From: an uncultured Planctomycetales bacterium
GTDB taxonomy: Bacteria > Planctomycetota > Phycisphaerae > UBA1845 > Fen-1342
Direction of reading: 5' to 3'
NCBI GenBank assembly: GCA_964523405.1
Contig: CAZGAQ010000004.1
Coordinates: 76,984 to 140,983, forward strand
DNA length: 64,000 bases
A program made the position numbers and the translations under genes. Under the pieces are notes generated by a model, which saw only the letters and a program-made list of their open reading frames with translations, searched no databases and had not been told where the DNA came from. Each line of letters starts with the position of its first letter. The first letter of the stretch is position 1. Below, in pieces: positions 39,645-43,769 of the stretch.

Positions 39645-41672
39645 TCACGCAAACACCCCGTGCACATACCACTCCCCCTCCCCCATCGTCCGAAACAGCC
39701 AGTACTGCTCCCCCTCCGCCGTCGTCACCCGAAAGTAATCCCGCCGCACGTCCGGCCCACGCCACCACGCCGTCTCGATCCGCTCCGGCCCGCTCGCCTC
39801 CGCCACCACGTACTCCCGCCCGCCATACCAAAACCACGTCGGCGGCCCGTCCGGAACCAGCGCAATCACCCGCACCAACACCGGCCGCGCGAGTAGCCGC
39901 ACCGGCCGCGGCAGGCGCAGGGTGGGGTGGGCGTCTCGCCCGCCAGGCAGGGTGGGGTGGGCGTCCCGCCCGCCAAGATTTGGCCGCACCCCCATCCCCT
40001 GTCCCGACGACCCTCCGCTGCTCGCCGCCGGCCCCACCTGGTCCGCCTCCAACCCCGCCTCCGCCACACACACGCACCGAAACGCCATCTCCGGCTGGTG
40101 ATCATCCACCAGCTCCGGCCGCACCACCGCCCCATACCCCACCCGCCCCGCAACCTGATCAATCAGCGTCCCCAAATCCTCCTCATCCCCCGGCTCCCGC
40201 GGCACAAACAGCTCCCCCTGCCCCGCGTGCCAGCGCGAAATCTCCCGCGCCACCAACCGCAGCCCCACCGGCCCCGGATTCGGATCGAACAACTCTACGT
40301 GACTGCGGCGAACCACCTCCGCCGAAGCGGCCCCCCCACTCCCCTCCCTCCCAGGGAGGGGTTTGGGGAGGCTAAAGCCGTCACTCTCCGCGCGACCCCT
40401 AAACGCCGTACCCTCCCGTAGTCCCCCCTGAGAGGGGGGACGGTCCGCGCCGCCTTCACCCCCCTCCCTCTCACGGAGCGACCGGGGGAGGGCGTCTTCT
40501 CCCCCCTCCCCCTTGGGGAGGGGTTGGGGGAAGGTGTCACTTCCCGCATCTCCGCCTCCCTTGGGGGACCGACCTCCGGTCGGTCTCACGTGAGAGAAAG
40601 CGGCCTCTTCTCCCATCCCCCCCTCCACCCGCTCCAACTTCTCCGCCAAAAGCTGCAGCACATGCTCACGCCGCCGCGACGCCCGCGCCAGCGCCACCAC
40701 CACCACCTGCGGCGGCCGTCCCTCGTAGTACAGCACGCAGTCCAGCCGGCGCAGCCCCGCCGCGCGCCGCTCCACCACCGCGAAAATCTCGTCCAGCAAC
40801 TCCCCCGCCACCCGCACCAGCGCGCGCGTGTCCGCCACCGGCCCTTCAAACCGCCGCCCCGCCTGCGGTACATCCACCGGCTGATGCGGCTGCACCCCCT
40901 CAAACACCTCTCCCAGCGCCTGCTGCAAACACCGCACCAGCCCCGCCCCAAACCGCGCCGGCAGCGTCGCTCGCGGCAGCGTCAGCAAATCCCCGATCGT
41001 CCGCACCCCCAGCGCCGCCAGCCGCTCGGCCACCACCGCCTCGATGCGCAGCCTCTCCGGCGGCAGCGGCGCCAAATAGGCGCTGCCCTGCCCCACCGGC
41101 ACCAGACACAACTCTTCTCGCCCGCTGCTCGCCAGCGCCTGCGCCGCCCCCACCGTGTCCGCCACCGCCACCCGCGCCGTAAAGCCCCGGCGCGCCAGGC
41201 CCGCCACGACCTGACGCGCCAGACGCTCCTCTCCTCCAAAGAGCAACTCGCAGCCGGTGATATCCACCAACAGCGTGTCCGGCTCCACCGGCTCCACGAT
41301 CGGACTGAACCGCACCGCCCAGTCCGCCAACCGCACCAGCGCCGCCCGGTCCCGCGCCGGCTCGTGCTCCCGCGCCTCCAACTCCGGCACGATCGCCTGC
41401 GCCTGACCGAGCGTCAGCCCCGCTCGCAAACCTGCCGCCCGCGCCTGCGGACAAACCTCCGCCACCACCAACGCCGCCCCCACCGCCCGCGTCAACGCCA
41501 ACGGCCGCTCCGCCGGCACCAACGCCGGTGTAGCCGTTGTAGCCTCCGCAGTTGCCGCCCGCGCCGGCGCCATCCGCGCCGCCACCGGCGCCCCCTCACC
41601 CGCCGCGGCGCCTTCGCTCCGCACCCGCTCCGTCGACAGGTACGGCAGATGCACACACAGGATGCGCCGCAT
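39645..41672 (-). CDS. imuB: ImuB-like Y-family DNA polymerase (SOS mutagenesis cassette) with repeat-derived insertion
   Basis: N-terminus MRRILCVHLPYLSTE. C-terminus PERIETAWWRGPDVRRDYFRVTTAEGEQYWLFRTMGEGEWYVHGVF, the ImuB signature. Central ~100 aa is encoded by palindromic repeats. Confidence 0.85.
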   Translation of the reverse strand: MRRILCVHLPYLSTERVRSEGAAAGEGAPVAARMAPARAATAEATTATPALVPAERPLALTRAVGAALVVAEVCPQARAAGLRAGLTLGQAQAIVPELEAREHEPARDRAALVRLADWAVRFSPIVEPVEPDTLLVDITGCELLFGGEERLARQVVAGLARRGFTARVAVADTVGAAQALASSGREELCLVPVGQGSAYLAPLPPERLRIEAVVAERLAALGVRTIGDLLTLPRATLPARFGAGLVRCLQQALGEVFEGVQPHQPVDVPQAGRRFEGPVADTRALVRVAGELLDEIFAVVERRAAGLRRLDCVLYYEGRPPQVVVVALARASRRREHVLQLLAEKLERVEGGMGEEAAFSHVRPTGGRSPKGGGDAGSDTFPQPLPKGEGGEDALPRSLREREGGEGGADRPPSQGGLREGTAFRGRAESDGFSLPKPLPGREGSGGAASAEVVRRSHVELFDPNPGPVGLRLVAREISRWHAGQGELFVPREPGDEEDLGTLIDQVAGRVGYGAVVRPELVDDHQPEMAFRCVCVAEAGLEADQVGPAASSGGSSGQGMGVRPNLGGRDAHPTLPGGRDAHPTLRLPRPVRLLARPVLVRVIALVPDGPPTWFWYGGREYVVAEASGPERIETAWWRGPDVRRDYFRVTTAEGEQYWLFRTMGEGEWYVHGVFA
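39912..39974. repeat. tandem direct repeat 2 x 30 bp inside imuB (encodes GGRDAHPTLP x2)
   Basis: caggcagggtggggtgggcgtcNcgcccgc repeated head to tail. Confidence 0.7.
40338..40590. repeat. cluster of 4-5 degenerate copies of the CCCTCCC...GGGAGGG palindromic element within imuB, ending in 25-mer gggggaccgacctccggtcggtct
   Basis: actcccctccctcccagggaggggtttggggagg; tcccccctgagagggggga; ccccctccctctcacggagcgaccgggggaggg; cccccctcccccttggggaggggttggggg; gaccgacc-tcc-ggtcggtc. Confidence 0.75.
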
Positions 41673-43256: not shown

Positions 43257-43769
43257 TCACACAGGTGTGCCACCCGCCCCATCCACCGAGTTGTCCACGC
43301 GCTGGTCATGCGCTGGCTGGACCTGCGCACGACTGCCCGAGATTGGGCGCCCGCATTCCGGACACACACCGCTCACATTGCCGGTCAGGTTGTACCCGCA
43401 GCCCCGACAGACTCCATCTCTGTGCCGAGTCCGGCTCCAACGCAAGTACCGGATGACCATGAATGCACACGGCACAACCGCGGCGTTCACCGCCATCGCC
43501 GGCACAGAAACGCCGACGAGTCGGTCGAAAAGCGGAAGGCGAATCACCTGCCAGCCGGGCATCTCTAGGTGATTGGGCGTGATCCGTCCGCTTTCCCACA
43601 AACGGACAGCAAGCGCCCGCTCTTCATCCAGCGTCATGCGACGTTCGACTTTGACCGGACGGAGTCTCAGGGACAAGAGTGGCCACCCACCTGTCGACCA
43701 GCCGCGCGGAATACCATTCAGGACAACCGCACATCCTGCCGCTGCAATTGCCCACCAGGCCCATTTCAT
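43257..43769 (-). CDS. small membrane protein with C-terminal CxxCGYNLTG...CPECG zinc ribbon
   Basis: MKWAWWAIAAAGCAVVLNG N-terminal hydrophobic segment ... CRGCGYNLTGNVSGVCPECGRPI. Starts 6 nt after the stop of the FG-GAP gene. Confidence 0.5.
   Translation of the reverse strand: MKWAWWAIAAAGCAVVLNGIPRGWSTGGWPLLSLRLRPVKVERRMTLDEERALAVRLWESGRITPNHLEMPGWQVIRLPLFDRLVGVSVPAMAVNAAVVPCAFMVIRYLRWSRTRHRDGVCRGCGYNLTGNVSGVCPECGRPISGSRAQVQPAHDQRVDNSVDGAGGTPV

Follow-up and report, generated by a model that had tools for sequence, protein, structure and literature searches.

Repeat-derived in-frame inserts in both genes of an imuA-imuB operon from the Phycisphaerae

Can a gene still be intact when its conserved core is split by a long array of repeats? 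The question is raised by the imuA-imuB cassette, encoding both accessory subunits of an error-prone polymerase, in a 64-kb stretch (the window) of contig CAZGAQ010000004.1 from an uncultured Planctomycetales bacterium of the Phycisphaerae. Coordinates below are window positions, and L and P numbers denote fetched loci and homologous proteins. A preliminary description of the sequence had left two alternatives for the cassette, a dnaE2 gene encoded elsewhere or decay; synteny in relatives, selection on imuB, and the intact ImuA core speak for the former and against the latter. As to whether imuA is broken, the evidence says no. The locus is probably an intact imuA-imuB operon of the split form, carrying selfish palindromic inserts that keep the reading frame, with dnaE2 presumably at another locus.

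The imuA insert and the ImuA core

The list of open reading frames (ORFs) contained the continuous minus-strand ORF of 554 codons at 41596..43260 that had been noted before. The genes were delimited as follows.

41596..42996, minus strand: imuA coding sequence, 466 aa, with ATG at 42996 and stop codon at 41596-41598
39645..41672, minus strand: imuB, 675 aa, with a Pfam IMS match
41596..41672, minus strand: overlap of imuA and imuB, 77 nt, from the ORF coordinates

The claim that imuA lies directly upstream of imuB and overlaps it was borne out, with the identities supported by the ImuA profile, the homologues, and Pfam IMS. The same arrangement was found in relatives, and in L081, L083, and L207 the two genes likewise overlap, by 53-77 nt as called. 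The ImuA tail encoded within the overlap (ELPDAA..VPVDGAGA.RRR.GG) is kept in the aligned homologues. The NCBIfam model ImuA_translesion (NF033429) matched the 554-codon ORF only at aa 395-517 (profile positions 62-181), and after excision of the insert in silico the match became one stretch at positions 5-181 of 181 (E 1.5e-28). When the portion beyond ATG 42705 was used as a database query, 196 homologues were retrieved. Many bear the name ImuA, those named by organism belong to Planctomycetota or Phycisphaerae, and the best were 60-68% identical over the conserved parts. The resulting segments of imuA are the following.

42706..42996, minus strand: variable low-complexity N-terminal extension, 97 aa, by the periodicity of G+C content at third codon positions (GC3)
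42454..42705, minus strand: conserved N-terminal half of the core (RLAQLAEQ..ICPTGLAALDAALGGG..AVHELV..helix), without Walker A, by alignments; predicted local distance difference test (pLDDT) about 90
42079..42453, minus strand: in-frame repeat-derived insert, 375 nt or 125 codons, not in most homologues
41596..42078, minus strand: conserved C-terminal half of the core, with the invariant RRLQLAAE motif and the conserved tail, by alignment; pLDDT >90

In the 369-aa ImuA numbered from ATG 42705, the insert occupies a loop that follows helix 67-81 and precedes strand 214-219. In alignments with first 17 and later 48 homologues, the bordering halves read ..AVHELV..TLALRTAALAAGGG and RWVLYVDTTLDFYPPG.., respectively. 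The insert had been described as about 140 codons of tandem repeats and hairpins resembling repetitive extragenic palindromes (REPs); the repeats and hairpins were found, and the size was reduced to 125 codons (42453..42079). The imuA frame is open throughout, as reported earlier, and is the sole open one, with 2-4 stops in each of the other five frames. GC3 is 0.57-0.73 in the insert versus 0.80-0.93 in the conserved flanks, and the predicted translation of the insert includes, for example, the peptide LLTEQWHTGGSVAGQR. Its components, together with a related repeat copy upstream of the gene, are listed below.

42413..42439, minus strand: degenerate family-A REP hairpin (CCACTGCTCACAGAGCA-CACGG), 89% match to 33180-33206
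42310..42372, minus strand: family-C repeat copy, with the exact 24-mer GGCCGGAGGCCCATGCTCCCCGGT at 42344-42367
42269..42297, minus strand: family-A REP hairpin of the GTGTC-loop type (GTGCCACTGCTATGTCAGCAGTGGCTTGA), hairpin core 42274-42294
42184..42210, minus strand: family-A REP hairpin in opposite orientation (CCACTGCTCACAGAGCAGTGGCACACG), hairpin core 42190-42210
42096..42200, minus strand: 30-bp tandem unit in 3.5 copies (Tandem Repeats Finder [TRF], period 30, 78% matches)
43150..43210, minus strand: second family-C copy, between the upstream gene and the imuA promoter, with the 24-mer again at 43178-43201

The hairpins at 42269-42297 and 42184-42210 form an inverted REP pair, and each 30-bp tandem unit combines the 3' arm and tag (GTGTG) of the REP hairpin with a spacer. 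No copy of the family-C 24-mer is expected in shuffled sequence. An intron, an intein, or a known structured RNA was also considered and rejected, because no Rfam family was at or near threshold and the insert is built from dispersed repeats.

All columns invariant among the aligned ImuA homologues are kept in the window protein, and so is the C-terminal tail. In an AlphaFold2 model made with a 49-sequence alignment, pLDDT was mostly >90 for residues 1-84 and 209-345 and <50 for residues 85-208, which correspond to the insert. RecA structures were the best PDB matches of the model in Foldseek (E about 1e-10). The sequence after AVHELV reads IPCAGGRPVEGAAAHT and lacks GxxxxGK[ST], i.e., a functional Walker A motif; the predicted fold is a RecA-like core of the ImuA1/ImuA2 type, a grouping taken from PMC12926913.

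The loop was measured in the 106 homologues that allowed the motif on either side to be found. Most commonly, the motifs were 39 residues apart (58/106 proteins); about 30% of the proteins exceeded 50, and the longest reached roughly 100-127. In the window protein, the spacing is 173 residues. A spacing of 196 aa in P0120 proved to be a motif-matching artifact. Several of the expansions read like translated palindromes. In the homologue P0071 (L211:1152-2216), a sister REP family was found, CACGGCCG-N3-CGGCCGTG, which also has the GTGTG tag; three of its copies lie in the loop equivalent to that of the window and one more in a second loop near the C terminus. No recognizable REP was found in the loop inserts of P0033 (L209) and P0094 (L210), so some ImuA loop expansions are not REP derived. 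The variable spacing and the REPs of L211 indicate that the site tolerates insertions and has been colonized independently by different repeat families.

Recurrent expansion of the loop across the clade could also mean that the insert has been co-opted, either as a flexible loop touching DnaE2 or ImuB or as mRNA hairpins tuning translation or stability and thereby the ImuA:ImuB ratio. A published AlphaFold model places an "extended ImuA loop," which may differ from the present one, at the DnaE2-ImuB interface (PMC12926913), and the insert RNA folds somewhat better than shuffled sequences (z = -2.26). We nevertheless consider co-option quite improbable: the loop inserts of different homologues are unrelated in sequence, the imuA insert lacks codon bias and is modeled with low pLDDT, and the analogous insert in imuB looks neutral (1 synonymous and 5 nonsynonymous differences, see below).

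Inserts in imuB and the repeat families

The preliminary description overlooked the in-frame REP inserts of imuB, the recurrent use of the ImuA loop site, and the promoter and candidate operator that fix the imuA start. The window ImuB matched Pfam PF00817 (IMS) at aa 47-179 (E 3.2e-14), with otherwise weak DinB-family matches only, and aligned end to end with ImuB of related Planctomycetota. Its motifs were assigned against published descriptions. The QGELF clamp-type motif (Q485 and F489 invariant), the RecA-NT-like LGTLIDQVAGRVGYGAVVRP, and the C-terminal approximately 90 aa (ImuB-C) align with five relatives. By eye, the N-terminal CVHLPYL and LLVDITGCE of the window protein stand where DinB has DMD and SIDEAYLD, a possible sign that the catalytic acidic residues are lost. 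The protein is 675 aa long, compared to 500-545 aa in the five aligned relatives and 519-575 aa in the other ImuB proteins of the clade. Three variable segments were delimited.

41514..41594, minus strand: N-terminal ImuB insert, 27 codons of 9/12-bp microrepeats, starting right after the imuA stop codon
40287..40625, minus strand: ImuB insert of family-B REPs (CCCTCCC..GGGAGGG, read PLPxGEGG), 113 codons, from alignment and repeat finding
39917..39975, minus strand: 30-bp repeat in tandem, two copies (GGRDAHPTLP), in a variable ImuB linker, from repeat finding and alignment

Of the six frames, only that of imuB is open in the 113-codon insert. The imuB segment overlapped by imuA looks as if it were protected from insertions.

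An exact look-up of the pilin-like protein encoded downstream led to the metagenome contigs L084 and L085 of a sister strain. L084, 97.5-98.6% identical to the window, spans imuB, and its imuB insert carries 42 extra nt (14 codons), corresponding to one repeat unit, in frame. Between the window and L084, 12 synonymous and 4 nonsynonymous differences were counted in the imuB core and 1 and 5, respectively, in the insert (Fisher P = 0.023). These counts show purifying selection on the imuB core between the strains and fit a core under selection that carries a passenger evolving neutrally within the constraint of the frame.

L084 begins next to the REP pair at 33144-33216, suggesting that such repeats break short-read assemblies, and ends inside imuA at 41845. 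Collapsed or misjoined repeats inside imuA would be consistent with these contig ends and with the lack of an independent contig for 41846-43260, for which a degenerate-codon scan of metagenomes with VLYVDTTLDFYPPG, an ImuA stretch from the coding sequence beside the insert, gave 0 matches. Such an assembly artifact is very unlikely all the same, as both ImuA halves flank the insert seamlessly and in frame, the equally repeat-rich imuB insert is confirmed independently by L084, and homologues in other assemblies are expanded at the same site.

The family-A hairpin, CCACTGCT-N5-AGCAGTGG, has an 8-bp stem and a 5-nt loop. Four exact copies and additional degenerate ones occur in the window, with 0 expected in shuffled sequence; outside imuA these are the inverted pair at 33144-33216 (exact copy at 33152) and a single copy at 63541-63569. 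At least 120 metagenome contigs (median GC 0.63) contain the hairpin, in 116 different sequence contexts, and a partner copy lay no more than 120 nt away in 36/122 cases among the matches listed. An unpaired GT-GTG tag stands on one side only, with GT preceding GTG in 96/116 contexts. The architecture is analogous to that of described REPs, with GTGTG in place of their GTAG or CGTC end tag, and the dispersal of the hairpin is REP-like behavior.

Family B was found outside the cassette as well. A plus-strand ORF of the AcrB/AcrD/AcrF family (26635-30498, 1,287 aa) contains four in-frame CCCTCCC..GGGAGGG copies, two at 27135-27270 and one each at 27795-27870 and 29754-29829, all read as TPLPPxEGxGGGSEP. 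The family thus gives the same peptide, PLPxxEGxGGG, in the AcrB-like ORF and in imuB, and the in-frame insertion of repeats is a property of this genome that extends beyond imuA.

With an intact operon as the probable reading, small selfish palindromic elements would repeatedly have landed in, or grown within, imuA and imuB, namely, the GTGTG-tagged REP-like hairpins, the CCCTCCC..GGGAGGG family, the third family, and local tandem duplications. Selection would have kept only the frame-preserving versions in tolerant places, which in ImuA would be the surface loop that follows the degenerate Walker-A helix and in ImuB the junction before the clamp-binding motif and the linker regions. The inserted DNA would then be translated as disordered loops on otherwise functional proteins, the expression and function of which we infer.

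REPs inside genes, many of them replication and repair genes including dnaE2, were described by Di Nocera et al. in 2013, with Opitutus terrae of the PVC group as the species richest in intragenic GTAG REPs; different REPs occur at about the same site in orthologues, and REP clusters encode 43-82 residues (PMC3733652). The window elements resemble these GTAG/CGTC elements of O. terrae, Rickettsia conorii, and Thauera in being short tagged palindromes in inverted pairs or clusters, in frame, and in targeting repair genes, error-prone polymerase genes among them, with a recurrent site in orthologues. They differ in the tag (GTGTG), in the targets imuA and imuB, neither of which appears in PMC3733652, and in the insert size of 125 and 113 aa against the reported maximum of 43-82 aa. 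Rickettsia palindromic elements (Ogata et al. 2000/2002, reviewed in PMC10969869) are the classic example of selfish DNA that lies in frame and is compatible with protein folds; they measure about 100-150 bp and occur in a reduced intracellular genome. Shared with them are palindromic DNA in frame in unrelated genes, one family being read as the same peptide, and the fold-compatible sites, here in imuA (by its predicted fold), imuB, and the AcrB-like ORF. The window elements are instead REP-like units of 25-60 bp in composite arrays within a large, high-GC, free-living genome. The locus is therefore a rather extreme example of a published phenomenon and not new in kind. It is a clear case of selfish palindromic DNA inside coding sequences, affecting both accessory subunits of the error-prone polymerase in a phylum without an earlier description, and the repeated colonization of the ImuA loop by different families supports the published clustering of intragenic REPs in DNA repair genes.

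Promoter, start codon, and a candidate operator

Upstream of imuA, two conserved elements were delimited.

43014..43072, minus strand: imuA promoter module, conserved in relatives
42999..43007, minus strand: GGGAACGGA, resembling a ribosome-binding site, 2-3 nt before the ATG and shared with L081, L083, L206, L207, and L208

The -35 element of the module is TTGCAT in the window (43067-43072) and TTGAC-like in relatives. A direct repeat, TTAGG-N6-TTAGG (43040-43055), encloses the -10-like TATGGT (43044-43049), and a GC-rich hairpin with little alignable covariation lies at 43014-43031 in the imuA 5' untranslated region (UTR). The promoter module also occurs in L081/82, L083, L207, L208, and L209, and in L206 with a longer leader; the complete arrangement of promoter, UTR, and GGAACGGA-N2-3-ATG is common to the window, L081, L083, L207, and L208.

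The start of imuA had been left ambiguous between 42996 and 42705. The ambiguity is real, and the comparative evidence favors 42996. GC3 is 0.87-0.93 across 42900-42706, and in L207 the conserved ATG lies 102 codons ahead of the annotated gene, in the same frame and with no stop in between. Taken together with the conserved module, these features make ATG 42996 the most likely start, giving a predicted protein of 466 aa whose N-terminal extension is variable and of low complexity; within the extension, TRF detected a 6-bp microrepeat at 42861-42879. Transcription would probably proceed from the sigma-70-like promoter at 43072-43044, whose -10 element lies within the direct repeat, a likely repressor operator and possibly a LexA box, and translation would begin at ATG 42996.

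The exact TTAGG-N6-TTAGG occurs once in the window, and across the fetched loci (about 1.6 Mb) it was found only upstream of imuA, plus in L099. The motif is conserved ahead of imuA in 8 loci, with sites at L081:1506-1521, L083:9943-9958, L206:5837-5852, L207:5639-5654, L208:5941-5956, and L209:496-511, and versions with one mismatch precede imuA in L002, L005, and L010. A direct repeat placed over the -10 element looks like a repressor operator, judged from its sequence and position. The LexA operator of alphaproteobacteria is the direct repeat GTTC-N7-GTTC. The window repeat is similar in its 11-bp period and in its position over the imuA -10 element, where it can be read as GTTA-N7-GTTA, and it differs in its sequence, TTAGG-N6-TTAGG. 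It is unlike the palindromic LexA boxes of Gram-positive bacteria or Verrucomicrobia. In the regions upstream of imuA in 35 Planctomycetota loci, no LexA-like palindrome of the Phycisphaerae was detected.

That TTAGG-N6-TTAGG serves a lineage of the Phycisphaerae as a LexA (SOS) operator not described before, with the insert-laden ImuA and ImuB fully functional, is a tentative proposal that we hold to be possible rather than probable. If it were true, disordered insertions of >100 residues would be tolerated by mutasome subunits at a site where REPs have landed recurrently. For Planctomycetes, the SOS system was called undocumented in 2016 (PMC4951493), and the promoter with its direct repeat is a concrete candidate for the SOS operator of the Phycisphaerae. 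The candidate operator is the most original by-product of the analysis.

Two further observations concern upstream sequences in other loci. In L099, three TTAGG repeats (AATTAGGTTGTATAGTTAGGGATATGTTAGGTATG) at 160-290 immediately precede a 514-aa ORF that has the P-loop GPSGSGKS, which may be another member of the same regulon. In Pirellulales-type loci (L019, L022, L030, L035, L038, L040, L048, and L069), the palindrome (A)TGCTAGCA(T) lies near the imuA start, and in several of them TGTAC-containing sequences stand just upstream of it.

Location of dnaE2 and the possibility of decay

The earlier statement that no dnaE2 follows imuB holds, and the next gene is the convergent pilin-like one already reported.

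38316..39368, plus strand: prepilin-type gene, convergent, downstream of imuB, with a prepilin N-methylation motif

Neither tblastn with planctomycete DnaE2 (E ≤ 1e-10) nor Pfam on the large ORFs detected a DnaE-like sequence in the 64-kb window. In the species-representative genome collection, the best match to the window was 63% identical. All the close relatives that could be inspected (L001, L002, L081/82, L083, and L207) have imuA-imuB without a downstream dnaE2 and with unrelated genes next. Several other Planctomycetota, including Rhodopirellula baltica (L030), have no dnaE2 within about 8 kb downstream, and imuA-imuB-dnaE2 is contiguous in loci of Gemmataceae, Tepidisphaeraceae, and Pirellulales (L012, L025, and L039). 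The Phycisphaerales metagenome-assembled genome locus L066 has a convergent dnaE2 homologue about 3 kb downstream of imuAB (14904-18041, minus strand of the locus); the match is split among several frames, suggesting either frameshifts in the assembly or a pseudogene.

The cassette resembles the "split" form, in which imuA'-imuB and dnaE2 are separate, for example in mycobacteria, according to the terminology of Erill et al. 2006 as cited in PMC10421592. With Mycobacterium tuberculosis imuA'-imuB it shares the overlapping two-gene operon, the nonadjacent dnaE2, the RecA-like ImuA without Walker A, and the Y-family-like ImuB with a clamp motif and ImuB-C. It differs in its phylum (Planctomycetota, Phycisphaerae) and in the long REP-derived in-frame inserts of both genes, and for the window genome dnaE2 is presumably elsewhere, a position that we infer for this comparison.

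Several observations weigh against an intact operon. They have to be set beside the possibility that the cassette is decaying, i.e., that imuA, and perhaps imuB, is a recent pseudogene open by chance and that dnaE2 has been lost, which we regard as unlikely. The ImuA score is 92.3 bits in the native form and 99.9 bits with the insert excised, under the curated NCBIfam equivalog cutoff of 150 bits; the clade relatives P0001 and P0017, which lack the insert, score 109 and 116 bits, respectively, and fall short of it too, so the shortfall reflects divergence of the clade and not the insert. The lack of dnaE2 in the window would suit decay, yet the dnaE2-less arrangement is common to the whole clade. 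The large insert within the RecA-like core has no codon bias, and an insertion of 125 residues there could still impair function; the same loop is, however, expanded in about 30% of the homologues. A consensus sigma-70 scan found no promoter in the region, the promoter being called from its conservation; in the conserved form, the promoter is intact, as are the invariant residues and the conserved tail. The strain data stop short of the imuA insert, since L084 ends before it and 41846-43260 comes from one assembly, and the synonymous and nonsynonymous counts in imuB are small. Even so, the 12 synonymous and 4 nonsynonymous differences in the imuB core and the in-frame indel between the strains are at odds with decay. 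By a rough estimate, random orientation, phase, and length would leave an insert open and in frame in about 1/18 of cases per gene, but both genes carry such an insert.

For annotation, the consequence is that such genes score below curated cutoffs and receive wrong starts, with a risk of being called hypothetical or pseudogenes.

Among the neighboring features, a terminator-like hairpin lies at 39406-39440, between the converging imuB and pilin-like genes. The gene upstream of imuA (43257-43796, minus strand) encodes a small protein without a family match and with a C-terminal zinc-ribbon-like motif, CxxCGYNL..CPECG. Exact-sequence look-ups of this 170-aa protein, the window ImuB, and the 369-aa ImuA gave no match. 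Farther away, the plus-strand ORFs at 51520-54141 and 54871-57264 are paralogues composed of many 138-bp (46-aa) tandem repeats with the signature W-N-G-S-x-W-x-P-L-G, and their 300-nt flanking segments are duplicated with 85-90% identity.

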